This document shows positions 6,947 to 62,643 of a stretch of 64,000 nt of DNA, in pieces. Under the pieces are notes generated by a model. It ran no database searches, was not told the DNA's origin, and saw nothing but the letters and a program-made list of their open reading frames with translations. Origin of the DNA: Iphione sp. A-MEVVRFRX5. Taxonomy: Eukaryota. Every line of letters begins with the position of its first letter. The stretch's first letter is position 1. The stretch is from positions 107,818,001 to 107,882,000 of the forward strand of contig OZ320316.1 of the NCBI GenBank assembly GCA_976226885.1, read 5' to 3'. Both the position numbers and the translations under genes were made by a program.

Positions 6947-8479
6947 TAAGAAAATATTCACTGTTAATCTTTGGAGCATGCTTTCAGGAGTTGTCTCTAA
7001 TACTTATATGCATACAGGTATTAATGGCAGGAATCATTTGTTAAGAGTTATGTTTCAGAAGTAACTGTTTTTGTAACACATCACTTAAATTTGGTACATC
7101 TTTGTGCCTATCATATATATATGTGTCAGTATTAATCAAGAAGAACTCTTAAAATTTAAGGCATGTAGTATCCCAAACTACTAGGCCAACTGGTTATGGC
7201 CTGCATGGCATCTCCATGTATAAAAAACCATACATGGCAAGCCACCCACACAAGCATGCAAACCTCGCACAAACACAAGACAGCCACTAATGCCCATTTA
7301 ACATGTCCCATAATGTTACATGTCTTGCCCTAATGTAAACAAGGGTTTGTCTTCGGTTAATTCTGCAGATTCAGCCAGTTCCTCTTCTGAAGGCAGTGGA
7401 AACGTCATCATGCAAGCATTGAAGGAATTCGAGAAACGCCTCGACCGGCAGGACCCATAGGCCGGCGGCTGGATGCCCTCGAGTATCTAGCGCGTTTCCA
7501 TCGCCGTCCTTTGGATGCCAAAGACCACCAACTGCTCGCCCAAAGATACCAACGAATCAAGGATGTGACCGGTCTCTCACAGGAACAATACGAGGCATTG
7601 GGGCATCATATAATCAGGAACTTTGTTTTTTTTACCCCTATTGTAGACTTTTTTTTAATATTTATCCAAGTACTTTCTATATATACCCTTTTTACATGTT
7701 TCTGTTGAAGACTTTTTACTGTAACCATATGGACACTTTTGTCCTTGAACAGTACCAGATTACTGACACAGCTTAAATTAACTTTCTTTTAAACTCTTCC
7801 ATAACTTTTTAAAACTTTTCTTCTTTAATTTTTTTTTAATCATTTTTTATCATTTAAAGATTAGACTTTCCAAACAGCTTTTAAAATCATTTTCTTCTTT
7901 CAATGTAAAACTTATATTGTCAGTAACTTTTCACTTTTTTAACTTTTGATTTCTTTAACTTCAAATAAGTAATTTCTTTTTTATATTTTTGACTATAATA
8001 TTACATGTGGAGCAATGCTGTGATATTTTGTCGCTTTTGACACATATTTAACCTGGTACTGTTATAAATTTCTTAATTCAAGCTTCTGCAGGTGTTGGGA
8101 TTTCTTATCAAAATTTCTTCAAAGACATGATATATATGCACATTCAGCCCTAGTAAGTTAGTTCTTTATGCCTACGTGTGATCTTAAGATAATGTTATGT
8201 TCTGTGCAACTCCTTACACTTATAACACATCAACTACAAATATTTTGAAACTAGATATTTATTACATGAAGATAAAGAAAAGAAATGGGTCTCCCCCATC
8301 TCCCACACACCTCTTATATAAACACAGAATGGACCATTTTCGCAAACACTCATATACACAACTACTATAATGTTCAAAAATGGCAAACACTCATATACAC
8401 AACTACTACAATGTTCAAAAATGGCAGCGTAGGCAAAACGTGTATCCGACTCCCTCCCACAAGTGCACACAGAGGAATA

Positions 8480-10093
8480 ATGGGAAAGAAAGCAGCGTCC
8501 GCTGACAAGGGTAATGCAAATGGGAATACCCCCGTATTGAGATCATCTACGCGGAGAGATCGTAATGGCTCACAGGCGGGTGGAAATCCATGTCAAAACC
8601 CAGGCGGTTGGGACACGGTGACTAATGGTGGCAGGACATCGAGCACTGAGGGTGCAGGTACGACAGCCGGCATAGTCGCCAACAAACTGTCAACAAATGT
8701 GAGTACAGAGGCATGTAACAATAATTTGGTGCTAACGGAAGGCGCCGATGACACATCGGACACGCAGGGTCAACAAAAAGACACACCTGTTCAGGAACGT
8801 GGACCGGTAGCGAACATCAACGTGGAAGTACAGACTGAGGCAGCTTTCAACATCACTGTTGACACAATTGACAGGGCAGTAGATTCCTCGGTCCTCTTGG
8901 GGGATCTGCTTCAGTGCTTCACGGAATTTCGGGAAGAGAGCAGCAAGGAGATCAGCGAGTTGAAGTCAAGGCTCAACAAGGTGACCCGTAAGAAGGATGC
9001 TCTAGAACAATGCATATCGAAGTTGAGGATGGAACAAGATTGCCGCATACAAGCTGTCCATGATGGGCTGTCACATCTAAACAGCAGGGTAACTCTGTCC
9101 GAAAGATGGTGTCAACGAATCGATGAGGAGTTATCCAGATATGATATACATGACAGGAACCGAAGACTGGTTATCGAAGGTGTGAGAGGCGCGGACTCGG
9201 CTTCTATCAGACAAAACGCAATGAAGATAATCAGCACAGTGAAGGCCGACATACAGCGTCATATCATGGAGGTCGTCTGCTTGTCAGAAGGTAATGGAGT
9301 AGGCAAAGTGGGCAGGGAATCCCGCGATGAGGTTCTCAGGAATAAGGCACTCCTGGCCAAATCGGCATACTACACCGATGTCTTCATCAAGGAGGACATT
9401 CCCCCGAGGGCATTGAACGAACATAAACATCAATCGAGACTGGCGAGCTCGCTGCGAAGGAGAGGAAGACGCGCGATTGCGAAGGGCATTGACCCGCTAG
9501 TCGACGGGGAAAAATTCGCTCCATCGGAACTCGGAAGGCTACCTAACGATATCGCCGTCACTGATCTCACAACAATAATAACTGATGACCATTATTACTT
9601 TTCGAATGACACCCCGGGCTTGTCGCCAATAGAGCGAAGTGTTATCACTCACAATAATGAATTTTGTGAATCGGTCGAATTCGCGTACCAACGGGTTCAA
9701 TCGCGCGCCTTGGGTAGTGGGAAAGTTCAGCGCAAGGTAAACAAAGCGGGAAGTTCTCTCGAAGCCAGGAAACTTTGTGCAGAGTTAGAGGTAGACAAGA
9801 AATGGTTGGCCGAATCAAAGGTAGTACTTTGTGATATACTACGTGAAAAGCTCAAGTTTGACATGATTTTCAGGGATGTCTTGTGTAAAAGTGGTAAGCG
9901 TAACATAATATACGCGGACAGCAATCTGATACTAGGTTCAGGTATATCGTTGCGCAGACATGAGAACAGGGCTACGGAGTGGAAAGGTCATAATGTACTG
10001 GGGTTGGCACTAGAAGAAGTCAGAAACACTGATCCAAACGCAACAAGCTGCGTAGCATTGATAATGAATCAAACGCAGTGGGTTGCACAGTAG
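8480..10093 (+). CDS. LINE A ORF1 (537 aa): disordered N-terminus, coiled coil, RRM-like region, C-terminal NADAR-like domain
   Basis: Heptad region ISELKSRLNKV…LEQCISKL; RNRRLVIEGV; VFIKEDIP. The C-terminus has SVEFAYQ…KWLAESKVVLCDILREKLK…IIYADSNLILGSG…WKGHNVLGLALEEVR (NADAR/YbiA pattern). Confidence 0.8.
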   Translation: MGKKAASADKGNANGNTPVLRSSTRRDRNGSQAGGNPCQNPGGWDTVTNGGRTSSTEGAGTTAGIVANKLSTNVSTEACNNNLVLTEGADDTSDTQGQQKDTPVQERGPVANINVEVQTEAAFNITVDTIDRAVDSSVLLGDLLQCFTEFREESSKEISELKSRLNKVTRKKDALEQCISKLRMEQDCRIQAVHDGLSHLNSRVTLSERWCQRIDEELSRYDIHDRNRRLVIEGVRGADSASIRQNAMKIISTVKADIQRHIMEVVCLSEGNGVGKVGRESRDEVLRNKALLAKSAYYTDVFIKEDIPPRALNEHKHQSRLASSLRRRGRRAIAKGIDPLVDGEKFAPSELGRLPNDIAVTDLTTIITDDHYYFSNDTPGLSPIERSVITHNNEFCESVEFAYQRVQSRALGSGKVQRKVNKAGSSLEARKLCAELEVDKKWLAESKVVLCDILREKLKFDMIFRDVLCKSGKRNIIYADSNLILGSGISLRRHENRATEWKGHNVLGLALEEVRNTDPNATSCVALIMNQTQWVAQ

Positions 10094-34954: not shown

Positions 34955-36619
34955 CTAGGCTGTAGTGTTTCTGGACAACGAATCCTGAGTTGAATCCTGA
35001 ATTGTAGCTCTTGCCTTCATTAGTGCTTTCCCCACATAATTCCTACCATAAAAATGGCCCTGTGACAATGAGTCCTCGTTGAAGCTACAAGCGCTGCCGT
35101 ATAGGTTGTGCTGCGATATCTCAATGATTGTCTTACCTGACGTTTGGAGTAGGGCGCTTCTAAATAGAGGGTATTGTAGAGACTTGCTGAGAATAATTTC
35201 AGTTAGGACGCTCAGCTCCTTTTCTTCCCAGTCCTGAGTGGTGGAGACGGAGTCACCAAGACGTCTGGCGTGATATGGGTCCTGTGTGGTCACGATTTGC
35301 GTTGCAGTGTCTGAGTGACCATTCAGTTTGGCTTTCGTAGTCTGTAGCGCATGCTCCATGGATTTGTATTCAGTATTTTCAAACGTAACCGTTTCACAGC
35401 GTAGGGTGGAGAGGGTGCAGCTTGGGCCCCTAAATGCCAGTAATCCCTCACGATCAATTGTGTTGGCGTTTTCGAGGGTTAATCCACTGGGCAAACTATG
35501 CAGCTGTGTATGATTGTACGATTTTCCGTCTATTCTGACAGTAAGCCCTCGTACACTTGCTAGATGTCCATTTTTTCGGGCCAATACTGCTATGTCGTGC
35601 AGATGTTGATAGATCAGAATTGCTCCTTTAGGTATGTCTTCCCTCAAATAAACATACGTATATTCAGGGGTTTTGCTGAGTTTGAATCTGTTAGCATACA
35701 CTCTGTTACGGTTGTTAATCGAGTTAAAGGTGATTTTGACTGGTCGCTCCCTACCTTCCTGATAGTTGCCCACTCTAGTGATGGACGCTATATCTGATTC
35801 ACTTGTATTCGCATCCAGTGTACTCATAATGTCATAGATAGCTTCATCTAAGTCATATTCTGGTGAGTCAGGTAGGCCTTTTGCAATTAGGTTTACAGAT
35901 CTCCTTTTTGTTTCTTGTGTTAGCCCATTGCGCCTCGCTGTGTTTGTTGATGCTGTTTGATCATTTCCATTGTTTTTAGTGGTGAGGGAGCGGTTGTGTA
36001 CATGGTTGCGGTTTTGTTGGGTTAGCCCGTTGTTGCTTTTGCTACCTTCGTAGTTGTGTGTGAGTGTGTCATCAGGTACGTCGGTGTATTGAGTGTTGGT
36101 GGAGATTATATGAGGGGTTTCTGCCTTGGACACTGTTTTTTCAATTACCTCCACTCTGCGTACTGTGGATTTAAGGAGTTCTATCAGTTGGGCATTGCTT
36201 TTTACCAGAGATTGTACCGCATCGTTAATTGCAGTGATGTTATTGTCAGTATAATCCTTGATTTTTTTCATTTCACTTAGGACGTAGCATTCATTGTCCA
36301 GTATTGTGGATATGATTGTGTCCATATAAGAGTCATTACCTTGATCACTTTTTGGTGTAGCTGTGTCCATCTGCTTGTTGTGCGGGCTCCCCGTGCGGTC
36401 CGCGTTGTCGGTCGTACCGGTTGTCTGGGGTATGCTCCCCTTGCCGTCGGTCGATAATAGGATACAGCGCACGGTGTCCTCCTTGTCCGAGACGTCCTTT
36501 ACTTTGCTATGGGTTTTCTTGTTGTTTCCTACTCGTTTTCTGTCTTTCAGGTGTATATTCCTATAAGCTAATTCTTTGGCTTTAGCTAGGGTAGTTTTAG
36601 GTCTAGTCAGTGTACCCAT
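34955..36619 (-). CDS. LINE C ORF1 (554 aa): coiled coil, RRM-like, NADAR domain
   Basis: RSVNLIAKGLPD…ITRVG…ERPVKITF…VYLREDIP. The C-terminus has LAFRGPSCTLS…SMEHALQTTKA…ARRLGD…DWEEKE…ALLQTSGKTIIE…GRNYVGKALMKAR. Confidence 0.85.
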   Translation of the reverse strand: MGTLTRPKTTLAKAKELAYRNIHLKDRKRVGNNKKTHSKVKDVSDKEDTVRCILLSTDGKGSIPQTTGTTDNADRTGSPHNKQMDTATPKSDQGNDSYMDTIISTILDNECYVLSEMKKIKDYTDNNITAINDAVQSLVKSNAQLIELLKSTVRRVEVIEKTVSKAETPHIISTNTQYTDVPDDTLTHNYEGSKSNNGLTQQNRNHVHNRSLTTKNNGNDQTASTNTARRNGLTQETKRRSVNLIAKGLPDSPEYDLDEAIYDIMSTLDANTSESDIASITRVGNYQEGRERPVKITFNSINNRNRVYANRFKLSKTPEYTYVYLREDIPKGAILIYQHLHDIAVLARKNGHLASVRGLTVRIDGKSYNHTQLHSLPSGLTLENANTIDREGLLAFRGPSCTLSTLRCETVTFENTEYKSMEHALQTTKAKLNGHSDTATQIVTTQDPYHARRLGDSVSTTQDWEEKELSVLTEIILSKSLQYPLFRSALLQTSGKTIIEISQHNLYGSACSFNEDSLSQGHFYGRNYVGKALMKARATIQDSTQDSLSRNTTA

Positions 36620-45499: not shown

Positions 45500-46217
45500 T
45501 GGAGGAAGCTTGTCACATCGCCCGGGTCACATTGTAACTCTTGCTGAGATCAAACCAGTGTAAAGGCATCTAGAATGGAAAATCTCATCAGAGCTTTTGA
45601 AGAAGAAGGGTAAGTCAGTTGCTTTTGAGTTTGTATGCTTACAGAATGTTTACCATAGATTTATTTGTCAATTACAGCGAAAGTGGTGATATGTCACGCA
45701 ACACATGGCATTCAACCTTACGTCATGCAGTGTTGTTGTACTACATATCATGATCTGCTAATGTCATCGTTGTATTGAAATAGTTCTTGCTCACTGTTTG
45801 TAAAGCCCACTATTCATAATTGACACAATAGTCTTGTTCCTTGCAGTCTTACTGCTCCAGAAGGCCTTATAAGGTTGATTCAAACATCTAAGACGAGAAG
45901 GAGCATGTATCATGCACTGTGGGCCGCCTGCAAGGTATACAGCAGTTAACAATGAGCTCAATTGTCATGAAGTTGTAATAAGCTGTCTTTGGCTATACTG
46001 ATATATTACATACCACCTTCATATGAATGCAATATTTGCTTAATCTAACAGTCTGTCTTTATATTAGAACATGTGTAGTAAAAATCTGACTACATACTTT
46101 CAGTTTGGTGCCAATCTGAGTGGACACAAGAGGACATATGCATTCCCAATTGAAATAAGGGATGCATTCAGGGAGCAATTCCCTGAAATTTCTCCAGCAT
46201 CGTACGATGAACAGTAC
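45500..46217 (+). pseudogene. Possible P2X7-intracellular-domain-like multi-exon remnant, interrupted by gypsy 2
   Basis: The exon …YFQFGANLSGHKRTYAFPIEIRDAFREQFPE…QY continues as EGRPD after 57377. The resemblance is loose. Confidence 0.25.
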
Positions 46218-47120
46218 TGTAATGTTGTCTGTGGCACCACAGCCACTTGTACTGTACTTGGTGAACTCTAGAATTAACGCTGACTGTGGCCTCGCAGTCG
46301 TATGTAGTGGTAGACACATGTACTGTACTTGGGGAACGCTAGAACGGACGTTGACTGTGGCACTGCAGTCGTATACAGTAGTAGATACATGTACTGTACT
46401 TGGTGAACTCTAGAATTAATGTTGACTGTGGCACCGCAGTCGTATGTAGTAGTAGATACATGTACTGTACTTGGCGAACTCTAGAATTAATGTTGACTGT
46501 GGCACCGCAGTCGTATGTAGTAGTAGATGCATGTACTGTACTTGGTGAACTCTAGGAACAATCTCGGCTGCGGCACCACAGCCAGCCAGGGTAACTATGT
46601 CGTAGTAATTTAGAAAAATGGTCATGGCCTGTGGCATCACAGGCAAGTTGTATGGCCCTGAGCCCTGGATGCCCAGGCATCTGTAACTTCGTATCTGATT
46701 GCTCTGAGATGATTGGTAGAGAGTAAGGCACACACCACATGTTGTAACAGTTTTATTCCATGAATGATACATCGTATGGATCACATGACCAGGAGTTTGA
46801 CTATAAATATGGGCCCTGTGTGGCCAATAAAACAGTTTGCACTTGGAACTCACTAGTGGACCTTGTTGATTGGGGATGTAACAAACCCACTTGGATTACC
46901 TAGGGTTGACACTTGGATGTAACCGCACTGGGACTACAGTGAAGTAACTGAGACAGGATAGCACTTATCAATAGTTGGATTCACCAAGTGGGAAATTCAA
47001 CAGGGGAATTATCCTGGAGTTAGTAACTGGACATAGCCTCACTGGAATTACAGTGGAGTAACTAAGGGAGCTAGCATTTAGTTGGATTACACCAAGTGGA
47101 GGAGTTAACCAAACATTACA
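46218..47120 (+). repeat. 5' LTR of gypsy 2 (903 bp)
   Basis: TGTAATG…CATTACA. TATAAA at 46802 and AATAAA at 46826. I saw only 3 substitutions relative to the 3' LTR by eye. Confidence 0.98.
46248..46555 (+). repeat. 71-bp tandem array (4 full copies + 1 partial) in LTR U3; also at 56505-56812
   Basis: Units start at 46248, 46319, 46390, 46461 and 46532 (TGTACTGTACTTGGTGAACTCTAG…). Confidence 0.95.
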
Positions 47121-47121
47121 C

Positions 47122-47139
47122 TGGTGGCAGCGGTGGGAT
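47122..47139 (+). promoter_or_regulatory. Primer-binding site for tRNA-Leu
   Basis: TGGTGGCAGCGGTGGGAT lies 1 nt after the LTR. It is complementary to the …ATCCCACCGCTGCCA-CCA end of tRNA-Leu. Confidence 0.9.
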
Positions 47140-47152
47140 AATCAACAGCAAG

Positions 47153-47992
47153 ATGGCAACTCAGTACGTGGCAGTGGATGAGGAAGTGCAAATTCGGGTT
47201 CCCAGCCCAGCACATGCGGGCGAGGAAGAGGAAGAAGGTGAGAAGTTTGAACTAGCCCCTGAGGAACCCCTGAAGATGAACGCCATGAAGCCTGAATGCT
47301 TCGATGGGAAGACCGTGGATTGGGACAGTTGGATAGGACAATTCACAGAGTGGGCGGACGCTTGCAAGTGGAGTGAGAACACCCGCTGTTCTGCCCTGAC
47401 GCTTTCGCTCACTGGCCCAGCGCGTATGTATTATGGAGATTTACCACCGGAGGACAAGCGGGATTATGGATCCCGTGTGACGGCGCTTGAGCGACGTTTT
47501 GGCAGGCGATGTGACCGGGTGGTGGCCATGCAGAAGCTCTCTAGCATCCGCAGGCAGAAGGACGAGGATGTCCGGGACCTGGCTGACCGGGTGAGGCGTC
47601 TGGTAAGGAGTGCCTACCCCGACGTGTCTGGGGAGACTCGGGAACTGGCCGCCGTGGCTGCCTTTCAGCGATCGTTGGTCGACTCCCTCCACCTCAAATG
47701 CCTGGAGGCGAAGTGTACCACGTTGGACGCGGCAGTACAGGTAGTGGAGACTCAGGAACGATTCGTCACTAAGAGGGTACAGGTGGTACAGGCCCCGTCA
47801 ACCCCAGCGTGGACAAAGCCTATGGAAGAGCTCACTAAGGAACTTGCCAAGATCCGAGAGGAGATGCAAGCTCGAGAGGAAGCAAGGAACAAGAGGCCGC
47901 GCTACACTAAATGTTTCCAATGTGGACAAGAGGGCCATTTCCGGCGTGATTGCCCTGAGTTACAGGGAAACGGACCTCAGTCGACCAATTAG
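47153..47992 (+). CDS. gag: gag of gypsy 2
   Basis: ATG in AAGATGG context. Contains FDGKTVDW…QFTEWA, RQKDEDV and the knuckle CFQCGQEGHFRRDC. Confidence 0.93.
   Translation: MATQYVAVDEEVQIRVPSPAHAGEEEEEGEKFELAPEEPLKMNAMKPECFDGKTVDWDSWIGQFTEWADACKWSENTRCSALTLSLTGPARMYYGDLPPEDKRDYGSRVTALERRFGRRCDRVVAMQKLSSIRRQKDEDVRDLADRVRRLVRSAYPDVSGETRELAAVAAFQRSLVDSLHLKCLEAKCTTLDAAVQVVETQERFVTKRVQVVQAPSTPAWTKPMEELTKELAKIREEMQAREEARNKRPRYTKCFQCGQEGHFRRDCPELQGNGPQSTN
47965..47971 (+). promoter_or_regulatory. -1 ribosomal frameshift heptamer G GGA AAC
   Basis: The heptamer is correctly phased in the gag frame, and pol is in the -1 frame. Confidence 0.75.
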
Positions 47993-48033
47993 GCCAGGAT
48001 GGTACGACTGGGATAGCTTTAACGGGGACTACA

Positions 48034-51000
48034 ATGGAACCAGGTCAGGGACCACGACTGAAGGTAAGCCTTGATGGAAGATCGTTAGAACTGTTGATCG
48101 ATACTGATGCCGAGGTATCCATTGTTAACCCCCGTGTGGTCCCTGGCCTGGAGGAGAGGGGTTCACTGACGTGTATCACTGGGGCGGGAGGGCATGTTAT
48201 CCCTACTTTGGGACACCGCACCTGCAAATTAGAAATAACGGGCAAGAGTTTTCAACACCATTTCCTAGTGGCCGAAGTAGAAGAAGATGGCATCCTAGGT
48301 AGTGACTTTCTGTGCCAACATAGGGCGGTGATTGATTTAGCCAAACAAGAGATAGCCCTGAAAAATGGCGTCCCTAGATGCCGCCGGGTGGTGAAACGGG
48401 AGGTGGAGATCCGAGTGGCTCATGATGTGACTCTGCCACCTGGGGAGGGGGTTGCTGTGCTAGTGAACTACAATGGGGGGGCACCCCTGATGATTGAAGG
48501 GCTGCTGGATTCACAGTGGAATAACGGGGTGATTGGAATGAGATGCCTGGTAGAAGCCACCCTGCCCATGTGGAACACGACCGAATTGGAAATATTCCTG
48601 AAACAGGGAACCCAGGTGGCCGTGGGGGTCCCCGCCCGTCCCTGGGACGAAACGTCAGTGACTCCCCAGAAGAGTGTGTGTGCCATAAGAAGGGCAGTGG
48701 CTGACGTGATACAGGAGTTGGTGGGGTCCACCACGAAGACCCTTACCCCGGACCAGCAGGGACGTTTGAGGTGGTTGCTCAGGAAACACAGTCTTGCCTT
48801 TGCCCGGGACCGGGGTGACCTAGGGTGCACAGATGTAGTACAACATCGCATCTACACCGAAGATCCACACCCTATCAAGCAGCCTCCGCGGCGCATGTCC
48901 TCGCAAAAAGACAAGAGGAATGGAAACTGGTGAATGAAATGAAAAACCAGGGAGTGATTGTCGAGAGTAACAGCCCGTGGTCCAGCCCGGTAGTGATGGT
49001 CAGAAAAAAGGATGGGACGACTCGGTTCTGCGTCGACTATAGGAAGCTAAACGAGAAGACGAGGGTTGATGCCTACCCACTACCAAGGATCGACGACTCA
49101 TTGAGTACCTTGTCGGGGGCTAAATATTTCTGCTCCCTGGACTTGGCATCCGGATACTGGCAGGTCCAAATGCACCCAGAAGATCGGGAAAAGACGGCAT
49201 TCTCCACGTCCATAGGGCTATACGAGTTTACCGTCATGCCATTTGGGTTGATCAATGCACCAGCAACGTTCGAGCGCCTGATGGACACAGTGTTACGTGG
49301 CTTGACATGGGAACAATGCCTAGTGTACCTAGATGATATACTGGTGTTCGGAAGGACCTTCCAGGAAACCCTGGCCCGCTTGGATCGGGTGTTGACACGG
49401 CTCTCGGCGGCAGGACTGAAGCTGAAACCGTCAAAATGTCAGCTGTTCCTGCAAGAAATAGGTTTCTTAGGACATATCGTTTCACCTAAAGGGGTGGCTA
49501 CGGATCCCAGCAAGACGAAGAACATTGAGGAATGGCCAACTCCAACCTGCACGACAGAGGTACGTGCCTTTCTAGGCCTCTGTTCGTATTACCGGCGTTA
49601 CGTGCCACACTTTGCGAATGTGGCAGCCCCTCTGAACCAGCTAACCAGTGCCAAGACGCCTTTCACATGGGGGAAGTCGGAAGAAAAGGCTTTTCAGGAG
49701 CTGAAGTCAGCCCTCGCTACCAGCCCGATCCTGGGGTACCCACGACCTGAAGGACGCTATTTCCTAGACACGGATGCCAGCAATGTGGGGTTGGGGGCCG
49801 TGCTCGCCCAATGGCAGGAGGGACGAGAGGTGGTACTGGCGTACTATAGCCGCAGTCTGAGCGAACCTGAGCGGCGGTATTGTGTGATGCGTAGGGAGCT
49901 GCTCGCGGTGGTAGCGGCCCTGAAACATTTCCACTTCTACCTGTATGGACAAGAAGTCACTGTGCGTACTGATAACGGAGCTGTAAGCTGGCTTCGTCGG
50001 ATCAAGGATCCGGAGGGGCAACTGGCACGCTGGCTGGAACGGGTAGGGCAGTACAATATTCACTTGGAGCACCGAGCTGGCCGATTGAATGCCAATGCGG
50101 ATGCCCTCTCCCGCCAACCCTGTCGGCAGTGTAAACAGGAACACCTACTTGAAGAGGGGGTAACCCAGAAGGTGAGGGCGGTAACCCGCAGCCAGGCAGT
50201 GGGGACCCAACATCCAGAACTGAGAACGGCTCAACTCCAGGACGAGTGTGTAGGGCCGATCCTTAAAGCCCTGGAACTGGACCCTCAACAACCCCCCTGG
50301 GAGTGGGTGGCCCCATTGTCAGCTGCGACTAAGAGCCTCTGGAGACAGTGGAGCCGACTCACCTTGACGGATGGTCTTCTGCAGCGTAGATGGACTGGCC
50401 TCGGAGGGGACCCCTCTCGGCTGCAGGTGGTCCTACCAGCCGTACTCCGTGAAAAGGCCTTCAAGGAAGTACACGCGGGGCAAACCGGGGCGCACCTGGC
50501 CGCCGAGCGAACCACTTACCTGGTATCGTTGGCTTACTATTGGCCAGGGATGAGAGAAGACACCGCAACCTGGTGCAAGAGCTGCCACTGCGCCCTGTTG
50601 AACCAGAACCCACTTCGTCCCCAAGTGCCACTCAAACCTTATTTGTCAGGGGAGCCTATGGAGCGATGGTCCATGGATGTGGCGGGGCCTCTGCCGTTGA
50701 CTGAACGAGGGAACCGCTATATCTTAATGGTGGGCGACCACTTCACCAAGTGGCTTGAGGCATTCCCGCTACCAGACCAAAAGGCTCCTCAGGTTGCTCG
50801 GATTTTGGCGGAAGAGGTAATCGCCCGTTATGGCTGCTTCCATGAACTACACAGCGACCAAGGAACTAACTTCTGCAGCGAGATCATCACAGCCCTCTGC
50901 GACTACCTTGACATTAAGAAGACCAGAACCACCCCCCGCCATCCACAGAGCGACGGTTTCATCGAACGAAGTTTTCGCACACTTGGAAAAATGATCAAGG

Positions 51001-51593
51001 CACACTGCTTTGAGAGTCGGGATGAGTGGGACACCGCACTTCCTTTTCTGATGATGGCTTACCACGCCTCACCCCAGGCTAGCACTGGTTACACTCCGAA
51101 TTACCTCATGTTCGGACGGGAGATAACCCTTCCAGTGCATGCGGTGGATGGTCTCCCTCAAAAGACTCCTACTACGGAGGACTTACCTGATCCCGTGGGA
51201 GGAATGGTTCGGCGTCTCCAAGCAGCGTACAGTAGAGTCCGGGAGAAGTTGGGCACGGCGGCCCGAGCCCAGGCCCGGGCGTACGATCGGAGGGTGAGGG
51301 GGGACGCCTTGGAGGCAGGGGCGGCGGTATGGCTCCATGAAGCCCAACCCCCAAAAGGAAAGAGCCCCAAAACCCATTTCTCTTGGTCGGGGCCGTGGCT
51401 AGTCATACGGGCCCTGGATGATGAGCGAATGGTGGTACAACGCTCGAAACAGGCAAGGCCGAAAGTCGTACATAGGAACCGTTTACGGCTGTACCGGGGG
51501 GATCAATTACCCCGGTGGATCGTCTCCTGGCGCAGGAAAAGCGAGGGCCCCGCCCCCCCCGCGAGGGGTGAGACCTCTTCCCGGAAGGCCTAA
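48034..51593 (+). pseudogene. pol: pol of gypsy 2 (PR-RT-RH-IN); 1-nt frameshift near 48900 and protease motif DTD
   Basis: Contains LLIDTDAEVSIV, RFCVDYRKLN, YLDD, LDTDAS, HHCC-like region, SDQGTNF…DGFIER and WSGPW. Confidence 0.95.
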
Positions 51594-52415
51594 TAAGGAG
51601 ATGGGGGGCGAGAAAGCCCGCTGGGACCCAGCGTCCCGCAGACTCGGAAAGAATGAAGAGTCGGGAAGTAGGATGATAAACGTCCTGGCGATGCTCGAAA
51701 ATGTTCATGTAGGGTGACGGCCGCCCGGAGCCGAAAGGGCTCAGAATGGCCGCTATGGGTGCGACAGGCGACCCGGAAGCCATCGGCTCGAAACGACCTG
51801 TGAAGAGGGGAGGCCCCCTGGTAGCACTCGAAAAGTCCGTGGGGCAAAAAGGGAACGCCCGGAAGCACATTGCGCACTCGAAATTCCCTGGAGGAGGATG
51901 GACATCCTGGGGTTTTGACCCGGCCCAGAAAGTCCAGGTAGGAGGACGGACCTCCTGGAGATGCACGAAAGGCCTGAGGAGGGAGGATGAACACCCTGGA
52001 GCACGCGAAACATTTATGAAGCGGGTAGGGAGTGAACGTCCCGGAGACGGCGGAGCTCGAAACGATTCGGTACGGATTGGCGGATGGGAGACGGTGAGAC
52101 CCCAAATAGGACAGGGTTACTTTACCCAAGATGCTGTCCTTGTCCTCTCGACGAAGGGGGGTAGTTACACGGCCAAGATGCGGTCCACTTTCCTCTGGAG
52201 GGGCCCAGTTGCGGTCCGTTTCCTCTAGTAGACCGGTCGAGGGGAAGCAGAGGCTGCCTTTAGACACCTTTAAGAGAGAGAAAGACTTAAGAACCTTACA
52301 GAAAGGAAAACCACAGGGAGACGACTAACAGGTAACTGAAATTTATTTAACAACTCTTAATGCTGCAACAGGATCTATTTACATATTCACAATATTTACA
52401 TATTTAGTTGGACAG

Positions 52416-53286
52416 TTAGTCGGACAGCACGATCGGGAAGGACGCGCAGTCCCCCCGGCAGAGGCCTGGGTAACATTGGCAGAGGATGTCAGTTGGCATT
52501 TCCTCCAGCAGGGCCCGATCTAGTAGGGGGGTCCCCCTGTCGGGAGTGTCATTGATGGATGTGGTGCTGGAGGAGGAGGGAGAAGCCGGAAACCACGGCG
52601 GAGAGTCCAACGACAAGGAAGGGGAAGGAGGAGCAGACGGCAGCGGCGAGAACAGGTCGCTTAGGTCCTGGTCCGACCCCCAAGGGTCGAGACGGCTGGA
52701 CGTCAGCGTCGAGGCAGTCCCGTCTGTGCCCGCGTAGCTGTCGGTGGAGGAGAGAGAGGCACGATCATCTATGCCTAGGGCCCAGGCTGGGATATCACGA
52801 GGGGCCGAAGGACTGCAGTCGGCCCATGGAACGGCGGGAGAGGTGGCCAGACTAGTGTAGCTCGAATCCGGAGTGAGAGACGCTAGTGTCTCCTCCACGT
52901 CCCGAAGCCCCAAGTCAGGGGAGACGGCCTCATTCCGATCGACACACCACCATGGATCGTGTATGGTGGGAAGAGGCGGCTCTGACGGTCCCGCAGGATG
53001 GACCACCACGTCCAGAACGTGATCCGGGCCGAAGAGGCGGACATAGCCAGGCGACGCGATGTACAGCGGCGTGTCCAAGACGTTGTAGAGACCGTACACG
53101 CGTAAAGAGGGCCCTGGGGTGGTGACGTCTATGTGCCTATAGTACGCATCAGGAACGGCGTACCTGCAAAACCAAGAGGCACAGGTAAAAGAAAACGGCG
53201 TACCTGCAAAACCAAGAGGCACAGGTAAAAGGAAAAAAATTTGTGCCCACGGTGCACATCAGGAATGGCATCCACAGCACAGTACA

Positions 53287-53322
<36 letters not shown>

Positions 53323-53356
53323 TTACACCACTCAAGGACACTTACCTTCTAACCAT
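52416..53356 (-). CDS. Spliced antisense accessory gene of gypsy 2 (about 252 aa, acidic and Ser/Pro-rich)
   Basis: ATG at 53356, donor AG|GTAAGT at 53346/53345 and acceptor TTTTGCAG|G at 53164/53163 join in frame to the open frame ending at 52416. Minus-strand AATAAA at about 52342-52347. Confidence 0.6.
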
Positions 53357-53677
53357 CTGGATGGCAGCAAGGAGGACACACAGGCTGGAGATGAAGGGAT
53401 GCTTCACCCACCAGAGTCTGACCTTAACCTATGAAGAGAAAAGTTGAACAGAACCCTAACAACAACAAACTGAATTCCAGAACCATAAAATACAAAATGA
53501 CTGAAGCTGGAGACAATAGGGAACTTACTGGTTCTCAGTGGGAGGATAGGCCATGAGCCAGCTGGGTAGGTGATAGCTGCCACTTTCCATGATGTGGATG
53601 CTTTGAAGTCAGTTGAGGAACTAACGCCGAGGCCCGGATAGCGAGGGCTCTTATAACCACACGAAGCGCGAAAGCGA

Positions 53678-54171
53678 CTGTGGCGCCACAGGCAAGAGAG
53701 GGGAACCGAACTACGCAGTACGCCGAGCGGCTGTGGCCCCACAGGCACATATTGCCGAAAGTCTGTTGGCTGCTAAAATCCGACGAAAATTTGCGGAAAC
53801 GGCTTGAAAGGTTCCCACTTCGTAAAGAAAAGCATTAAATTCCACCCTGTGGCCCCACAGCGATAGAAAAGAAAAAAAACAGTGACTGCGGAACCGCAGC
53901 CAAACGTAAACTTCCGCCCAGCTTCAAAATAAGGCTCTTCAGCTCGGGAGTGCGGGAGAAAGAGAGGAGGATATGAAGCTGGACCTTCTGGGCCAGTAAG
54001 AACAACGACCAGGGCAAAGAAGTCGAAGGGAACCGCACCGCAGAAGCTTCGACGCTAGCTCGACGGCTGTGGTGCCACAGGGAGTGGAGGACGCATACAA
54101 GGTGAATAAACTGACTGCGGACCCACAGCTGTACCGAGTGGAGGGCATCAGAAACGCTTGTGGTTCCGCAG
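53678..54171. promoter_or_regulatory. Cluster of palindromic CTGYGGNNCCRCAG sites between the divergent accessory genes
   Basis: Perfect copies at 53678, 53731, 53847, 53886, 54067 and 54115, and a near-perfect copy at 54158. Minus-strand TTATAA at 53651-53656. Confidence 0.8.
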
Positions 54172-54187: not shown

Positions 54188-55558
54188 ATGCCGCGCAAGA
54201 AGGTAAGTGGCAAACGGTGGCCCAGTAAGCTGACACCAGACTTACAGCTTACCCCAGAGGCCAAGATCTGTACCAGGTGTGTTGTACCACGTCCATTCAA
54301 GAATCAGGATTCATATGATCGTCATGTACATGATAAGCATGAGGGGGGGCGGGGCCGTGATATCATGTGCCTTTGGTGTTCGGTGGTGATAAACGATGAA
54401 CACTACTGGGTTACCCACCAGCGACGCTACCACCCCTGGGCCGTGGACTTCGGTTTAACCGAGAAACCTTACCGATGTCTCTACGATGTGGCGAGTGGGG
54501 GGCCTCGGATCGTCGCTGCCCCAGATGACGAACTGACCACTATTCTTATGCGTGCCCGCCGGGCCCGAGAGGAGGGATGGGTGCTTACTCAGCAAGATGT
54601 GGAGCACATGTTGGCCGAGTGCCCGCAACGGGCGAACCCCCCGCCACTGCCCCGTCAGTGCAGGATCGGGGGCCCCGTTGGGGAGGGGTCGGGGGCTGCC
54701 TCCTCCGCACAGGCGGCACCGGTTTCCCCACCCTGTGAGGCCCCCGCCGTGGAACCGGCGATTGGAGAGGTTGCGGCAACACCTGAGGAACGACGGCCGG
54801 CCACTCCTGGGTCCGACACGGCCTGTACGCCATCGCGGGTGCCAACTCAAGGGAAAGCCTGGCCCGCTGGCATCCGAGACGAGCCTTCACTCCTGGGGGA
54901 GGGCCATCTGGCCCGGCTGGCCGCCTATACCCTGTGGCCGCGGCGGCGACCGCATGTGACCGGACGCGTGCAGGACAGCCTCTCTGGCCTCTTCCCTCCA
55001 CATGTGGCCACTATGCGGAGCCAACTCGTGCCAGGCCCGGTCCGTCTACCACCTGTCATCACCTGGCCTCCCCCGCACTGGGACACACTCTCTCCGGTCC
55101 AGCGGTTGATGACATCATTATCTTTGGCCTGGGTGCTCCAGTTAGCGGAAGGAGGTGGGCCACTCCCCCCTACTGTGTTGGAACCACTGCGACAGAGGCC
55201 CGCCCTTCTCCTGCCCGGGATGGCACTCCCTCAGCCGCAGGACTGGGGAAACGTAGACGATATACTCGCCCGGAACAATCATACCGTTACTGTCGCAGAA
55301 AACCTCATTAAGGATCTCCAGAGGGAGGGAGGACAAGATAGGGGCCCTAGGGCCACCAACGCAGTTCGGTGGTTACGTGAAAGAGACGACGCGCGGATGC
55401 AGCAGGACCAGCAGTCCCCTACCCTGTATGACGTCTGTCATCATTCAGCCCCCAGGCAACTGTTGCTGGGGACACAAGAAGTGTGGAGACGCTGCCTCAA
55501 GGGGGCGGATGGCCGACCGCACCCTGCAGCGGAGAAAGGGAGGAAGGACGGGGAGTAA
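54188..55558 (+). CDS. Accessory ORF of gypsy 2 with two C2H2-type zinc fingers (456 aa)
   Basis: Basic N-terminus PRKK…KR; fingers CTRC…FKNQDSYDRHVHDKH and CLWC…HYWVTHQRRYH; Pro/Ala-rich linker; conserved-looking C-terminal region. Confidence 0.75.
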   Translation: MPRKKVSGKRWPSKLTPDLQLTPEAKICTRCVVPRPFKNQDSYDRHVHDKHEGGRGRDIMCLWCSVVINDEHYWVTHQRRYHPWAVDFGLTEKPYRCLYDVASGGPRIVAAPDDELTTILMRARRAREEGWVLTQQDVEHMLAECPQRANPPPLPRQCRIGGPVGEGSGAASSAQAAPVSPPCEAPAVEPAIGEVAATPEERRPATPGSDTACTPSRVPTQGKAWPAGIRDEPSLLGEGHLARLAAYTLWPRRRPHVTGRVQDSLSGLFPPHVATMRSQLVPGPVRLPPVITWPPPHWDTLSPVQRLMTSLSLAWVLQLAEGGGPLPPTVLEPLRQRPALLLPGMALPQPQDWGNVDDILARNNHTVTVAENLIKDLQREGGQDRGPRATNAVRWLRERDDARMQQDQQSPTLYDVCHHSAPRQLLLGTQEVWRRCLKGADGRPHPAAEKGRKDGE

Positions 55559-56474
55559 GGTCCCGTCCAAGCCTGGAGGCTGTGCCACCGCATGTGACTA
55601 CCTCCCTTGGAGGTTTCTTTAGTCTAGCTGTTGGGGGGGGGTTCGTTAAACAAGAGTGTTACTAAAAAGTAGGAAAGGGGACCCTACCCCCCATAAAAAC
55701 CTTACTGTTTGTAATTGTTACCTGTGATGCTAAGGTTTGGAGAGTTGTGGGAAGTGACTGAAGGGGACTGTACCCCACAAAAAAAAGGAAAGGTTATACA
55801 CTCAGGTTCTCTGCCTCAGGTGAAGTATTTATAATGTTTGTTATAATGTGATGTTGATCTGTAATGATTGTTACCCATGTTACTTGCCAAATGTTACCCC
55901 CTATGGGGCCGTGGAGTGTTATCAAAGAAATGACTGGAGGGGACTGTACCCCACAAAAAAAAAAACGGGGTTCAGGTTTGTCTTATTAGAAGTTGATGAC
56001 TACATCTTTATCTCCTATGGAGACTTTACCAGATTCAGCATACATTCCAGATAATCGATTACTAAAAGGGGGGTGTTCCTGTATGTACGTGCATATTCCA
56101 GACTGTTACCGTTGATGACCAGTGAATATTGATCACTACCTCCTAGGGAGGCTTTACCAGAGTAAGCATTTACCCCAGACTGTTCCTGTATGTATGTGCA
56201 TATTCCAGACTGTTACCGTTGATGACTAGTGAGTATCGATCATTACCTCCTATGGAGGCTTTCCCAGAGTTACTAGTTGTTATCCAAGAATTGTTGAGAG
56301 TGTTATTAATGATCATCACCTCCTATGGAGGCTTTGCCAGAGTTACCAGTAGTTATCCAAGAATTGTTAGGACAACTGTTAACCTCCCTAGGGAGATTTA
56401 TGCTAGCTCAGGTTGTGCCTCCCAGGACAACCGGTTTTCACTTCCCCCGGCGGACTGTTTTAAGGTGGGGAGAG

Positions 56475-57377
56475 TGTAATGTTGTCTGTGGCACCACAGC
56501 CACTTGTACTGTACTTGGTGAACTCTAGAATTAACGCTGACTGTGGCCTCGCAGTCGTATGTAGTGGTAGACACATGTACTGTACTTGGGGAACGCTAGA
56601 ACGGACGTTGACTGTGGCACTGCAGTCGTATACAGTAGTAGATACATGTACTGTACTTGGTGAACTCTAGAATTAATGTTGACTGTGGCACCGCAGTCGT
56701 ATGTAGTAGTAGATACATGTACTGTACTTGGCGAACTCTAGAATTAATGTTGACTGTGGCACCGCAGTCGTATGTAGTAGTAGATGCATGTACTGTACTT
56801 GGTGAACTCTAGGAACGATCTCGGCTGCGGCACCACAGCCAGCCAGGGTAACTATGTCGTAGTAATTTAGAAAAATGGTCATGGCCTGTGGCACCACAGG
56901 CAAGTTGTATGGCCCTGAGCCCTGGATGCCCAGGCATCTGTAACTTCGTATCTGATTGCTCTGAGATGATTGGTAGAGAGTAAGGCACACACCACATGTT
57001 GTAACAGTTTTATTCCATGAATGATACATCGTATGGATCACATGACCAGGAGTTTGACTATAAATATGGGCCCTGTGTGGCCAATAAAACAGTTTGCACT
57101 TGGAACTCACTAGTGGACCTTGTTGATTGGGGATGTAACAAACCCACTTGGATTACCTAGGGTTGACACTTGGATGTAACTGCACTGGGACTACAGTGAA
57201 GTAACTGAGACAGGATAGCACTTATCAATAGTTGGATTCACCAAGTGGGAAATTCAACAGGGGAATTATCCTGGAGTTAGTAACTGGACATAGCCTCACT
57301 GGAATTACAGTGGAGTAACTAAGGGAGCTAGCATTTAGTTGGATTACACCAAGTGGAGGAGTTAACCAAACATTACA
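56475..57377 (+). repeat. 3' LTR of gypsy 2 (903 bp)
   Basis: Copy of 46218-47120, preceded by the PPT AAGGTGGGGAGAG (56462-56474). Confidence 0.98.
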
Positions 57378-60238
57378 GTACGAAGGTCGGCCAGACATAT
57401 GTATAAATCATTTAGAAATTCACTTCATGTCCCCTATGTACGGTAGCATCTAACAACAATTATAAAGTGAAATATTTCCAGGAAGAGATGTAGTGTCTCA
57501 TCTTAATCTCAACATCTACATGAACCAAACATGTGTGCAATTTGCAAGCAAATGAAATGTATGCTTCATTATCGGGGCAATGTGACTTGGGAGTATGTAC
57601 ATATTTTTAATCATGTAAACCTCAAGCAAATATTGATGTACAATAGGCTATCTCAAAATTTCTACTTTGTAACATCTACCAATCTCTGTGTAACCCTACT
57701 CATCATCTTGAACCTCAAGACCAGGTACAGAGGAATAATGTATGTATATGACAGTGAGTTGCCCATCGAGACAAATTACGTGCTTCCTCTTTCCCAGGTG
57801 TATTATGTATCCATGCATGAACTGTGCATGTTAACCTATCCCAAGAGAAAGAAGTAATGATGCACAGTCATGGAGCAACCTGTGGCTGAAATAAAGTGGA
57901 TGTGTGGCCCAACACTTAGTTTATGTTCATCAAACGATCTGAATTAGTGTTTCAAAATGTTGTAATCAGTTATGAGTTCTTTGGTAATTAAATTTGTAAC
58001 TCAATGTGCCCTTGTGTTGTTCTTCACTTCTTAGGTTTTTTTCTTGTACCTGTACTGATCAAACCGAGGGGAGTGCCAGGTTGGGAAGCAATTGCGCTTA
58101 CTGTTTAGGCACAGATGGACCTGACATTGCTTTACCATGAAGGATATAGCATACGTGACAGTTGCGTCGGAGAGGGCTGTACTGGGGATCGTGTGGCCCG
58201 GAAAGATCCATGCTCTTTTTCTTCCTGATAGCTGGAAGGTAAATCGGTGGGCCTTCGTCATCCTGGATTCTCGCTAGTTGCCTTACCAGCTCCTCTCTGA
58301 AATCGATGTGTGTATAACCTGAAAGGTGTAAGGGCAGGTCTTGATGCAGACAGCAGTGAACTGTGATATTAGAAGCTTGATTAAATCTGTGCACTTAATT
58401 GACATGTTTCATATTTCTCATGTGTAAAATTCAGATGGAAGAAGAGTACTGACCAGCACAATGAACAAGGCCCAGTACCTCGGGGTGAGCAGCCTTCCAT
58501 TGCTTGAATAGAAGAAAACTATAACGTGGAAAAAAGCGTTTTCCACCACTTGGTTGATTTCTGAAGGCATGTGTATGACTGTATCATCTGGTCGGCAAGG
58601 TCGACGCCGCCCATGAATCGGTTGTATGAGTGAATACATCTTGGGATTCTGGTGAGCTTGTGTTGATAGGATTCGTCTTTAGATTTCCCGTTCCTGATGA
58701 CAAGAACATGGCTGTCTCCTCTGTGCATCATACTGATCATATTAACGATACGTTTGTCAAACCACTGCAAAACCAAGACATCTTCTTGAAGAACATAACA
58801 CATGTCCCCTGCCTTCACTTTCTTGGGCCATTCTTTGCCTTTCAGGACCTGTAAACACAGTTAGGTCATCTTCAACACTATGGATTGAAAGTTGACGAAA
58901 CCGTCTTTAGTCTAACTCGATGTAGTGCTATTCATAAACAAGGCCAAATATCAATGCTGAACTAATTGCATATTCTATGGTAAAACTTACAATTGGGAAG
59001 CCTTGACGCCAAGGCTGCATGGTGCCACACATCAGAGTGCCAACCTCCAACAAGTATTTGGCCAGCTAGAATGATGAGAAGAAGTTGTCACAAAATACCA
59101 TGTACCCCTGATGTAGGTATGGTTTCATCAAAGATGTGATGACATCGAATCCCAATCCATGAGAGCTTCGCTCACAACTGCGGTCAATATACACACTGAA
59201 AATTGTCATGAGAAGACATGTTAGCCATTATGTATTGGATGTATTTCAAAGCCACAAGCTGAATAACTCAACGTTATAAATTTTTCATTCCCATTATTTT
59301 AGCCCATTGCAAACTACATACTGTGATGGCTCATTTATATTCTCACTCACCTGAAATTGAATGTGTAGCCTGTCTCTGCATCGCAGAGACACCACAGTAA
59401 CCAAACCTCGTATGTTTGCTTGGCATGTATTGTTGGATAGGTGATCGTTGTTTTGAACGCACCATTCTCTCATCAATGGAAACTGTCTGCCTGGGTTGGA
59501 AATACTTCTTGTTGGCAGCACTCAGGTGATCGAGTAGGGGTCGGATTTTAGACAATTTATCATTTTCATCCTCCTCCCCAGGCTTTGAGACATGCAACAT
59601 GGCGTTAATGGCTTTAAATCTATAATATAGATTAAATCAAAATAATATATATTAACAAGTTTCAAAACAAACATTCACATGACAGGAACATATTCAAACC
59701 TCAAAACATCTACCATAAATTAATACACATGTACGCCCTTGCATTCGAATCATCATATTCTGAGTTTATCAGTCATAGCATACCTGTTCCTTGACAAGAA
59801 CCGTCGTGACCATCCCCCTGGATAGAGAGTGGCCTGTGACCAGTTTCTCTCTAAGTCACGCCTGCCATCTAATCCATGAAATATTATAAGAGCAATTAAT
59901 TGCTTCATTACCTGTAGGGAGGCTTCGTTCCAAGCTCTGTCTCTTCGATTGCCATATGATGGCTTATCAAGGATATGGAGCCACCCATATAAGTTTGTGT
60001 TGTCCACAACAGCCTGTAAAATGAATGGGTGCCTTTCTTACAACCATGCAGGATGGATTAGAATGCAAGATGAGCCAATGGTAATATTACAGTAAAATGT
60101 AATCCTGCGACATCAAAGTGTTTCTTAAGGATATGCATCATTACCTGCAATACATCTGGCATGAAGAGCCCAAAGAAGTCAATGGCTTTGGTGAATTTGT
60201 TTTTTCCAGTACGTATGATTCGATCCACCAGATGGGGT

Positions 60239-60816: not shown

Positions 60817-62643
60817 ATGGGGCGTTTTCGCCAAGGTGAATATTGCAAATTCGAGGGTAATGTCTACAAAGTCTTACTCAAGTTTCAACCAACTCATTAC
60901 CCATACTTTCTGTATCAAATACAGAGCATTGCAACTGGTGATATTCGCAATGTAGGCAGTCACCTCCTCGAAAAAATGGATTGGCAGCCGCAGACAGATT
61001 TCCAGATTGAATCATTTGATATTCCGACAGAAGTCTACGAAATATCATTCAAATCTGACAATGAAGAAATCGAAGCTACGCAGGCCTATGGTATTCCTGA
61101 TGACAACATCCAAGCCCGTGATGTTGAACCAACTCAAGCATACGAGGAAAGAAGAAGGAGCCCACCAAAGGATCCTCGTTTCAAGCGTCCGTCACCAGAG
61201 GAATTGGAAGCTGTGAAAAAGGCAAGAAACTCGAAAAAAAAAGAACAGCAAACAAAATGGGCGACAAAGTTATTCAGAGGTATTAAAAAAAATAATTTAG
61301 CTGAAACACATATCAGTTTTCGTTAATAAGACATAGTACCGGTACATATCTTACATTATTCTTAAAATTGCCTTGGTGTATTTCGTACAGGGTGGCTTGC
61401 TGCAGTGAACTACGATGCGGACTTCGAGAACGAAGCACCATCCGTTTTAGCTCAACGCCTTGAAGAATTCTACGCCAGCATCAAAACAGCAGAAAATAAC
61501 GACTACAGTCGCAGTGGGTTAAAAAACCTCCGTGCTGGGATTCAAAGGCACTTAGTATCGCCTCCATTCAACCGTAACATCAACATCGTAGCTGACCGTG
61601 AGTTCAGAACCGCCAATTTAGCGTATGAAGGACGATTAGCTAAGTTGCGTAAAGATGGAAATGACAAGGCTCAGCATAAGTTATTGATTGAGAAAGAGGA
61701 TGTCGAGAAATTATATTCCACTGTTTTTGTTCACACGCCAATAGGCTTACAACGTCAAGTTTTCTTCAACGTCGTCCTCCATTTTGGACGACGTGGAAGA
61801 GAAGGTTTACGTGAGTTAACTAAAAATTCGTTTGTTGTCTCTAAAGATTCTCAGGGTACTGAATTCGTGGCTATGTCAGCTGTAGAATGTGAGAAAACTA
61901 GGCAGGGAGTGAAGGAGGAGGATGACATCACAAACAAACGCATGTATGCTAATGCTTCCCATCCAGACAGGTGCCCTGTAAGGGCCTTCAAAGAATATGT
62001 AACGAGGTTGCACCCCGACAATATGTACTTTTTTCAGCGACCAAAAAGGAATTATAATCCGCACGAGATGATTTGGTTTGACAACATGGTGTTGGGGTGC
62101 AACACGCTCTATAACATGATGAAGGTTATGTCTAAAGAGGCATCCTTAAGCAAAATATATACAAACCACTGCATAAGGCGGACGGTTGTAACTGTTCTGG
62201 ATCATGTGGGATATTCAAATGCAAACATCCAATCTGTAACGGGACACAAAAGCGAAAAAAGTCTTGTTCCTTACCTCGGGGGTCCTTCTACCACGTGCAG
62301 AAAAAACATGTCTAATCTGTTATCTGATTACGGCAACGAAAAAGCAGTACAGCGTTTGCCATCTTCAACGATTTCAAAACCATTGGAAGGTTGTTGTACA
62401 GGTGAAAAAAATGAACAGCATGTTGCAATCGAGATGGGGAATCCATCCACGCTTGATGTTTGTAATGATGAGGTGGTAGTTCAATCGAAAGAAATTGCTG
62501 AAGTCGCTTCAACTTTGTCACAAGAAAACGTTACCTTGACACAGGTTACTATGTCAAAGGAAGAAGTAGTTCCTGCAATGTTCTCAGGCAAAACGACCTT
62601 ACATAATTGCACAATTAATTTCAATTGTATTTCCAAGAAGTAA
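60817..62643 (+). CDS. Tyrosine recombinase (DUF3504/Crypton-like), 2 exons (60817-61279, 61391-62643), about 571 aa
   Basis: A GT-AG intron joins in frame (TKLFRG|WLAAVNY). Catalytic set: FGRRGRE (R), EKTRQG (K), NHCIRRT (HxxR), TGHKSEKSLVPY (H…Y). Confidence 0.88.

Follow-up and report, generated by a model that had tools for sequence, protein, structure and literature searches.

The 64,000-nt stretch of contig OZ320316.1 analysed here (the window, in whose coordinates all positions are given) contains an open reading frame (ORF) of 456 amino acids, P0001, that has two C2H2-like zinc fingers and lies downstream of pol in a gypsy element. It very probably represents a genuine accessory gene carried by one clade of animal Ty3/gypsy elements, where it occupies the position that env has in other elements. 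The ORF, its family, the selection acting on its relatives, and the palindromic sequences (dyads) found in the element with their positions are observed directly. We further propose, tentatively and with slightly under even confidence, that P0001 would be a DNA-binding protein through which the element regulates its own promoters, activator-like and working in the manner of the foamy-virus Tas protein.

The host element

P0001 sits within a complete Ty3/gypsy (Metaviridae) LTR retrotransposon that has direct LTRs with TG...CA ends, a primer-binding site, a polypurine tract and a target-site duplication. A Pfam-style domain search gives the order gag, protease (PR), RT, RNase H, integrase, i.e. 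the gypsy type. The preliminary description had called this a gypsy element, and with all these features present the assignment is confirmed.

The 5′ LTR (46218 to 47120) and 3′ LTR (56475 to 57377) are each 903 bp in length and differ by three mismatches (99.7% alike), showing that the element is young. They are bordered by the duplicated target GTAC at 46214-46217 and 57378-57381. The 5′ LTR contains a 71-bp tandem array (4.3 copies), and the TATAAA of the LTR is at 46802. The primer-binding site (47121 to 47139), which we take to be of the tRNA-Leu type, is identical in sequence in the related loci L008, L090 and L092. There follow gag with a CCHC knuckle (47153 to 47992), which contains a strong splice-donor match at 47238, the protease frame (47959 to 48933) and the RT-RNase H-integrase frame (48819 to 51593), for which the closest database protein is P0004 (54% identical). 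These three occupy three different reading frames. The polypurine tract is at 56462 to 56474, and all of these features are on the forward strand. The usual motif of retroelement proteases is D-T-G; the frame at 47959-48933 has D-T-D in its place. Though young, this copy of the element may be defective, given the altered motif and a protease that is out of frame with RT, a break that may be either a mutation or an assembly error.

Other frames and repeats were seen in the element. The G+C-rich stretch after the integrase (51594-52330) holds a forward frame of 160 amino acids (51746-52228) and two overlapping reverse frames of 237 and 244 codons, together with short imperfect repeats; its frames have no Pfam match and no relative. 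The 3′ untranslated region (55560-56460) contains a 107-bp tandem repeat, three 67-nt copies and three 36-nt copies ending in runs of A.

The window as a whole is crowded with mobile elements of animal type. At 8285-10093 (forward) and 34955-36619 (reverse) there are two long ORFs that contain a NADAR domain, each lying upstream of the endonuclease/RT frames of a LINE-like element, for which this is an unusual first ORF. On the reverse strand there is a GDSL-lipase-like ORF at 15713-16396 (a LINE first ORF), an RT frame at 1988-2890 preceded by a weak dUTPase match (E 0.007), which is another retroelement with an accessory domain, and a fragment of a piggyBac-type transposase at 58519-58860. 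A DUF3504/tyrosine-recombinase frame that is Crypton-like is found at 61873-62643 (forward).

Features of the two-finger ORF

The 456-aa ORF had been described as lying between the integrase and the polypurine tract, and it is present exactly so at 54188 to 55558 on the forward strand, beginning 2.6 kb past the integrase stop (51593) and ending 0.9 kb short of the polypurine tract. From stop to stop the frame is 482 codons long; in 2000 Markov resamples the region never gave so long a frame (maximum 414).

Finger 1 (54269 to 54340) has the arrangement C28-x2-C31-x14-H46-x4-H51 and finger 2 (54368 to 54433) has C61-x2-C64-x12-H77-x4-H82, separated by a linker of 9 residues. Both satisfy the ligand pattern C-x2-4-C ... 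H-x3-5-H and have the conserved hydrophobic residues. Among 100,000 shuffles of P0001 a single pattern arose in 1,533 and an adjacent pair in none. The two fingers of the preliminary description are thus both found, with weak backing from Pfam. A Pfam search with the whole of P0001 gave nothing at E≤0.1; taken alone, finger 1 matched zf-C2H2_4 (E=0.068, 14.4 bits, under the curated cut-off of 27) and finger 2 matched zf-C2H2 (E=2.3, 9.3 bits, under the cut-off of 25.2). Helix positions −1 to 6 read NQDSYDR in finger 1, with R6 and S3 at base-reading positions, and DEHYWVT in finger 2, with D-1, Y3 and T6. The helix of finger 2 is acidic and non-canonical, unlike that of finger 2 in the relatives.

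The protein had been judged not to be env-like, and we agree. The highest Kyte-Doolittle mean over 19 residues is 0.94, so there is no transmembrane stretch, and a domain search found no match of P0001 to an env family. The NLS-like N-terminus was upheld in part. A basic stretch is there, but the strongest splice-donor match on the forward strand of the element places the first intron base at 54203, after the fifth codon of the ORF. The basic N-terminus therefore straddles this donor, and part of the supposed NLS may be intron; note that splice sites were scored with crude weights. The ORF's own ATG has A at −3. The donor in gag at 47238 is in phase with an acceptor-like site at 54258, a coincidence expected one time in three.

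Toward the C-terminus (55052 to 55228) is a helical domain with a W-P-P-x-x-W motif, which the finger ORFs in L008, L010 and L123 also possess. A single-sequence structure model of P0001 had a mean pLDDT of 38.5, with a helix over residues 40-51 only, and the predicted folds (pLDDT 38.5 and 42.8) are both too poor to inform. Foldseek with the predicted folds gave no match at E≤0.001, and the best result of VIA structure comparison (Z 5.8) was to generic helical bundles, from these low-pLDDT models.

Finger ORFs in a clade of related elements

Two protein databases yielded nothing directly homologous to P0001. A phmmer search of 1.84 billion representatives returned a sole match, the repeat protein P0002, that was rejected as spurious, and a word-seeded search with residues 1-150 scored none of 116 candidates. 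There were no matches in a sequence search of the PDB, in a locus scan of metagenomes with P0001, or in viral scans using the integrase alone or a C-terminal alignment. The C-terminal alignment searched against five genomes refound only the contig of L123, and a profile search with alignment A2 gave one match, P0138, that is near-identical to the ORF of L106. In tblastn the only trace of P0001 was its C-terminal stretch of residues 289-347, in L010 (E 0.24). The best ESM Atlas score was 0.85, to unnamed clusters, with C2H2 families among the lower-ranking matches as a lead only. Since direct searches with P0001 gave nothing usable, relatives were collected by pol.

P0004 has 777 cluster members. 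An alignment-based pol scan yielded 147 loci, 117 with enough pol for a tree; the pol trees contain unnamed loci and automatically named proteins, with no reference elements. Many loci come from metagenome or bacterial-bin records, and these are presumably host-derived contigs. A scan for finger patterns over 3.5 kb past the integrase flagged 22 loci within one clade and one outside, from which L007 and L067 were removed as false pattern matches on inspection. A post-integrase C2H2 ORF is then present in 21 of the 33 informative loci inside the pol clade, compared with none of 28 outside. Loci left out as uninformative were 21 short ones, 7 lacking integrase and L007 inside the clade, and 23 short ones and 4 lacking integrase outside. 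The carriers include near-copies, L093, L094 and L096-L099 being one record set in which five of the six are near-identical; on collapsing at 80% pol identity about 17 of 27 families inside the clade carry the finger ORF. The boundary of the clade was set after the labels were known and has a local support of no more than 0.86-0.91. We do not rely on a Fisher p of 7e-6, with its post-hoc boundary, related loci and two false hits included.

Five more post-pol finger ORFs, obtained not by pol but through a C2H2 family search in contaminated bins, were all placed inside the same clade, a check that is only partly independent; a sixth, L153, is absent from the tree. In some of the 12 loci inside the clade scored as having none, the downstream ORF is truncated at the edge of the contig; L046 and L049, the loci nearest to the window in pol, are among these and end before a finger could show. 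Acidic post-pol ORFs are seen in these nearest and clade-mate elements (L046:4540-5270, L049:5608-6194 and L019:8892-9450), two of them cut by the contig.

Extra ORFs other than env had been called uncommon in such elements. Within this pol clade the opposite holds, as the majority of informative loci carry one. By the same count, the ORF is not a capture unique to this copy when considered at the level of the family.

The tails of the relatives' finger ORFs vary, being Arg/Ser-rich, acidic, fused to a TatD DNase (L069), or carrying the W-P-P-x-x-W domain (L008, L010, L123). In L069 the post-integrase ORF (7372-9000) has two C2H2-like fingers fused to the TatD DNase (E 2e-38); in the pol tree this locus is sister to L185-L187 and L190, that have finger ORFs without TatD. 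Among 15 relatives, finger 2 has Arg or Lys at helix position 6 in 13 and Arg at −1 in 9, residues that make up the usual DNA-reading layout of C2H2 fingers. The best finger score among relatives was that of L097 (E 5e-11). An acceptor-like sequence lies shortly ahead of finger 1 in several relatives, with no Met in that exon in L010 and L165, and none of the relatives' splice donors paired consistently with the finger exon.

We also observed multi-C2H2 ORFs in L152, L157, L158, L161, L174 and L177, which have no gypsy pol match in the available stretch and have a long C-terminal region in common that resembles Polinton-type proteins. They are a possible source pool for the fingers.

Kinship and selection

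The kinship of P0001 to these ORFs is seen at its C-terminal domain. A profile of three sequences (L008, L010 and L123), excluding P0001 and covering a region picked by eye, matches residues 289-347 with 19.2 bits (E 4e-8 as a single comparison); none of 2000 shuffles was as good, and the best other frame of the window reached 9.8 bits. A full-length profile without P0001 matches the same residues with 15.5 bits (none of 2000 shuffles; best other frame 5.8). The profile of the finger region scored −1.2 bits against P0001, equalled by 599 of 2000 shuffles. The window pol does not group with those of L008, L010 and L123, being under 50% identical to them. With the finger region unmatched and pol standing apart, deep divergence or an exchange of modules is required. 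At the level of the family P0001 does therefore have homologues, to judge from the C-terminal match.

Purifying selection is likewise seen among the relatives, where three close pairs, all from one family, have dN/dS of 0.18-0.20. In L093/L096, for example, differences fall at 19.5 of 110 synonymous sites and at 12.5 of 355 non-synonymous ones. L090, L092 and L101 have saturated synonymous sites at 64% protein identity in their finger region, and the other six pairs are saturated or nearly so and give little information.

The dyads

The preliminary description linked the protein to palindromic sites. Such sites do exist. The sequence CTGYGG-N2-CCRCAG at up to one mismatch occurs 21 times in the window, compared with an expectation of 0.29 and none of 100 shuffles. 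All 21 lie within the element, with seven in each LTR and seven just upstream of the finger ORF. Those of the 5′ LTR are in its 5′ part (46229 to 46642), upstream of the TATAAA, with four inside the 71-bp tandem array; the first is 11 bp from the end of the element, and the same seven recur in the 3′ LTR (56486-56899). The seven internal dyads (53678 to 54171) form a candidate bidirectional internal promoter. Their spacers and flanks vary from site to site and are unrelated to one another, and the last overlaps an acceptor-like sequence 16 nt ahead of the ATG of the finger ORF. The dyads are upstream of the TATA boxes and do not cover them.

In the 22 half-sites of 11 sites CTGYGG is almost invariant and G is favored two bases before it (18 of 22), while the 2-bp spacer is free. 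Half-sites that are nearly fixed around a free spacer fit a dimeric protein bound to DNA. As RNA the internal cluster has a better folding score than shuffled sequences (z −3.2), which arises because the dyads are self-complementary; mismatches of both the C-A and T-G kinds are found on the forward strand, so that a DNA site is likelier than a hairpin. An Rfam search gave no matches.

The half-site resembles what we take to be the RUNX core, and the sites could accordingly be due to a host factor. RUNX favors a T after TGYGG, and only 7 of the 22 half-sites have it, which indicates that there is no selection for the full RUNX site, and RUNX as the binder is weakened by this.

A comparable array of dyads with 6-bp arms was not observed in 16 finger-bearing relatives, many without a complete LTR, with the exception of L029 (4 dyads) and possibly L097 (4 downstream matches). 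Repeated LTR motifs occur in finger-less elements too (L078, L079 and L124), and a motif search of the non-coding DNA of relatives gave no consistent correspondence of finger to site. In the LTR of L029 there are several dyads like CGACTAC...GTAGTCG (L029:115-190), a second candidate pair of protein and site in a finger-bearing relative.

It is plausible that P0001 reads the dyads of the window element. They stand where the sites of a self-regulator should, ahead of the finger ORF and within the LTR's 5′ part.

A putative antisense gene

A second, spliced gene, overlooked in the preliminary description, appears to start beside the internal dyad cluster on the reverse strand. Its putative promoter and first exon (53529 to 53655) contain TATAAGA at 53655 and TTAGTT at 53624, presumably TATA-like and initiator-like elements respectively, an ATG in good context at 53590 and a GTAAGT donor at 53528. 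A putative middle exon of 83 nt (53346 to 53428) has strong acceptor and donor matches. The putative last exon (52416 to 53163) has 248 open codons after the acceptor at 53163, with AATAAA at 52347; this acceptor is duplicated by a 40-bp tandem (53203 and 53163). The phase of the first exon agrees with that of the acceptor at 53163, and the middle exon also has an in-phase ATG. An open frame of 280 codons was reached by 7 of 2000 resamples, so that most gave a shorter one.

The predicted product has a beta-rich-looking start, an acidic Ser/Pro-rich tail and a C-terminal cluster of Cys. This tail resembles activation domains. No homologue, family or fold was detected for it in the ESM Atlas, Pfam or the loci of relatives. 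If the gene model is right, the internal dyads separate two divergent accessory genes.

A possible regulatory circuit and its alternatives

We infer expression, nuclear import, dimerisation, dyad binding and the sign of regulation in the following scheme. The finger protein would be made from a subgenomic message, arising from an internal promoter and/or by splicing to an acceptor just before finger 1, and would pass to the nucleus. There it would bind CTGYGG-N2-CCRCAG as a dimer, with two fingers per half-site, and the C-terminal helical domain might supply dimerisation or a contact to a cofactor. With dyads upstream of the LTR TATA box and between the two divergent accessory genes, the protein would bring the LTR, its own gene and the antisense gene under one feedback loop. 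Activation would be the simplest sign.

Self-regulation of this kind is supported by the placing of dyads about the TATA box of the LTR and the TATA-like/initiator pair of the antisense gene, and by the usual DNA-reading layout of finger 2 in the relatives. It is weakened by the non-canonical finger 2 of P0001 and its unmatched finger profile, by the absence of the dyad array from most relatives, and by the repeated LTR motifs of elements that have no fingers. The wider proposal, that an env-less Ty3/gypsy clade encodes sequence-specific C2H2 factors, with a dyad circuit like that of a complex retrovirus in the window element, in which a bidirectional internal promoter drives both the finger gene and the spliced antisense gene, and with fingers and sites co-diverging by family, we regard as possible and on the whole doubtful.

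Several of the same observations would be accommodated if the accessory gene were real and a dimeric host factor bound the dyads, leaving the finger protein some other nuclear role, which might be to tether the integration complex to chosen DNA, to oppose silencing by the host, or to bind the element's RNA so that it is exported. We would not call this probable, and it deserves serious weight. The departure of finger 2 from the canonical layout is then of no concern, relatives with canonical fingers would mostly lack dyad arrays as they do, and the very different tails of the finger ORFs within the clade suggest varied uses. The folding of the internal cluster as RNA might also be cited, but that score is expected of self-complementary dyads and the two kinds of mismatch fit a DNA site better. 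Moreover the full RUNX site is not selected, and the sites cluster at the 5′ end of the finger gene itself.

The sign could also be reversed, with P0001 binding the dyads as a repressor to give a self-limiting LTR switch, in which damping of the LTR would provide control of copy number or tissue, and the acidic-tailed antisense product acting as activator or partner. The dyad 11 bp from the end of the element and the one overlapping the acceptor-like sequence are suggestive of this, as is the acidic, Ser/Pro-rich tail of the antisense frame. We think it unlikely, as dyads placed upstream of the TATA boxes rather than over them speak against it, and neither a homologue nor a fold could be detected for the antisense product.

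Lastly, the ORF in this lineage might be a decaying or recently swapped-in passenger with dead fingers, its openness reflecting only the youth of the copy (3 of 903 LTR bases differ), with fingers below the Pfam cut-offs that fail to match the finger profile of the relatives and pro and RT in different frames in a copy that may be defective, but the eight metal ligands and the two hydrophobics of the helix are all in place, and a frame of 456 codons with a distant yet recognisable C-terminal domain at under 50% pol identity to the other carriers requires long selection, so this is very unlikely.

Comparison with known systems

Extra ORFs as such are known in gypsy elements; a clade-wide C2H2 accessory family in them is apparently undescribed. 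We found no description of a post-pol C2H2 gene in the literature (subscription journals, Repbase and supplements lay outside the search). Term searches of PMC6238403, PMC8220671, PMC13524379, PMC5408684, PMC6431247 and PMC12440569 revealed no such ORF, and in surveys of the LTR elements of molluscs and annelids and of elements with env the terms 'zinc' and 'zinc finger' are absent from the main text.

The fingers of P0001 share with those of the Kruppel/Zif268 type (PF00096/PF13894) the C-x2-C...H-x4-H ligands and the conserved aromatic/hydrophobic pair. They differ in that there are only two, finger 1 has two extra residues, and the 9-residue linker is not TGEKP-like. With the env of errantiviruses and the small ORFs of MDG1-type elements, P0001 has in common that it is a gene beyond gag-pol in an animal Ty3/gypsy element; as presented in the parts of PMC13524379 and PMC11952523 drawn on here those are membrane or fusion proteins, whereas P0001 has no hydrophobic stretch.

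The gypsy-like elements of bdelloid rotifers have a non-env ORF3 after pol, typically with spliced messages (Rodriguez et al. 2017, PMC5408684). In the sections of that paper used here, the ORF3 products are env-like, GDSL lipase, DEDDy exonuclease, coiled-coil or TM proteins, and 'zinc', 'finger' and 'C2H2' do not occur in its main text. Plant elements have ORFs between pol and the 3′ LTR, such as Grande gene23 and Retand ORF4, and the fungal Boty has an antisense ORF (PMC7264820). Some of these extra ORFs run antisense from a promoter of their own and yield nuclear products, and a regulatory role has been proposed and is unproven (Vicient and Casacuberta 2020, PMC7264820); the putative antisense gene of the window would be of the same kind. 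The portions of PMC7264820 on which we draw make a comparison with the transactivators of complex retroviruses and describe no C2H2 protein or cognate DNA sites for the plant and fungal elements. Unlike these, the window element has sense and antisense genes that appear to diverge from one cluster of sites.

A candidate 14-bp target within the same element makes the function of non-env extra ORFs testable with one protein and one site. Element-borne C2H2 genes also reverse the usual view of zinc fingers as weapons of the host against transposons. If the wider proposal is true, such elements could also supply their hosts, as a mobile source, with new zinc-finger genes and new binding sites.

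LTR retrotransposons are usually regarded as dependent upon host factors for transcription, and self-encoded transactivators are a mark of complex retroviruses. The closest parallel to the circuit proposed here is with the foamy viruses. There Tas/Bel1 (BTas in the bovine virus) is a transactivator with binding sites both in the LTR and in an internal promoter that precedes its gene (PMC4929722, PMC8670036). P0001 would work like Tas without being a member of its family, and no likeness of sequence between them was noticed. Tas and P0001 differ in that Tas belongs to the Retroviridae and is encoded downstream of env, whereas the window element has no env and P0001 has C2H2 fingers. Common to the two is a gene located after pol in the element, and the layout of the dyads, known here from the sites alone, would correspond to the same kind of circuit.
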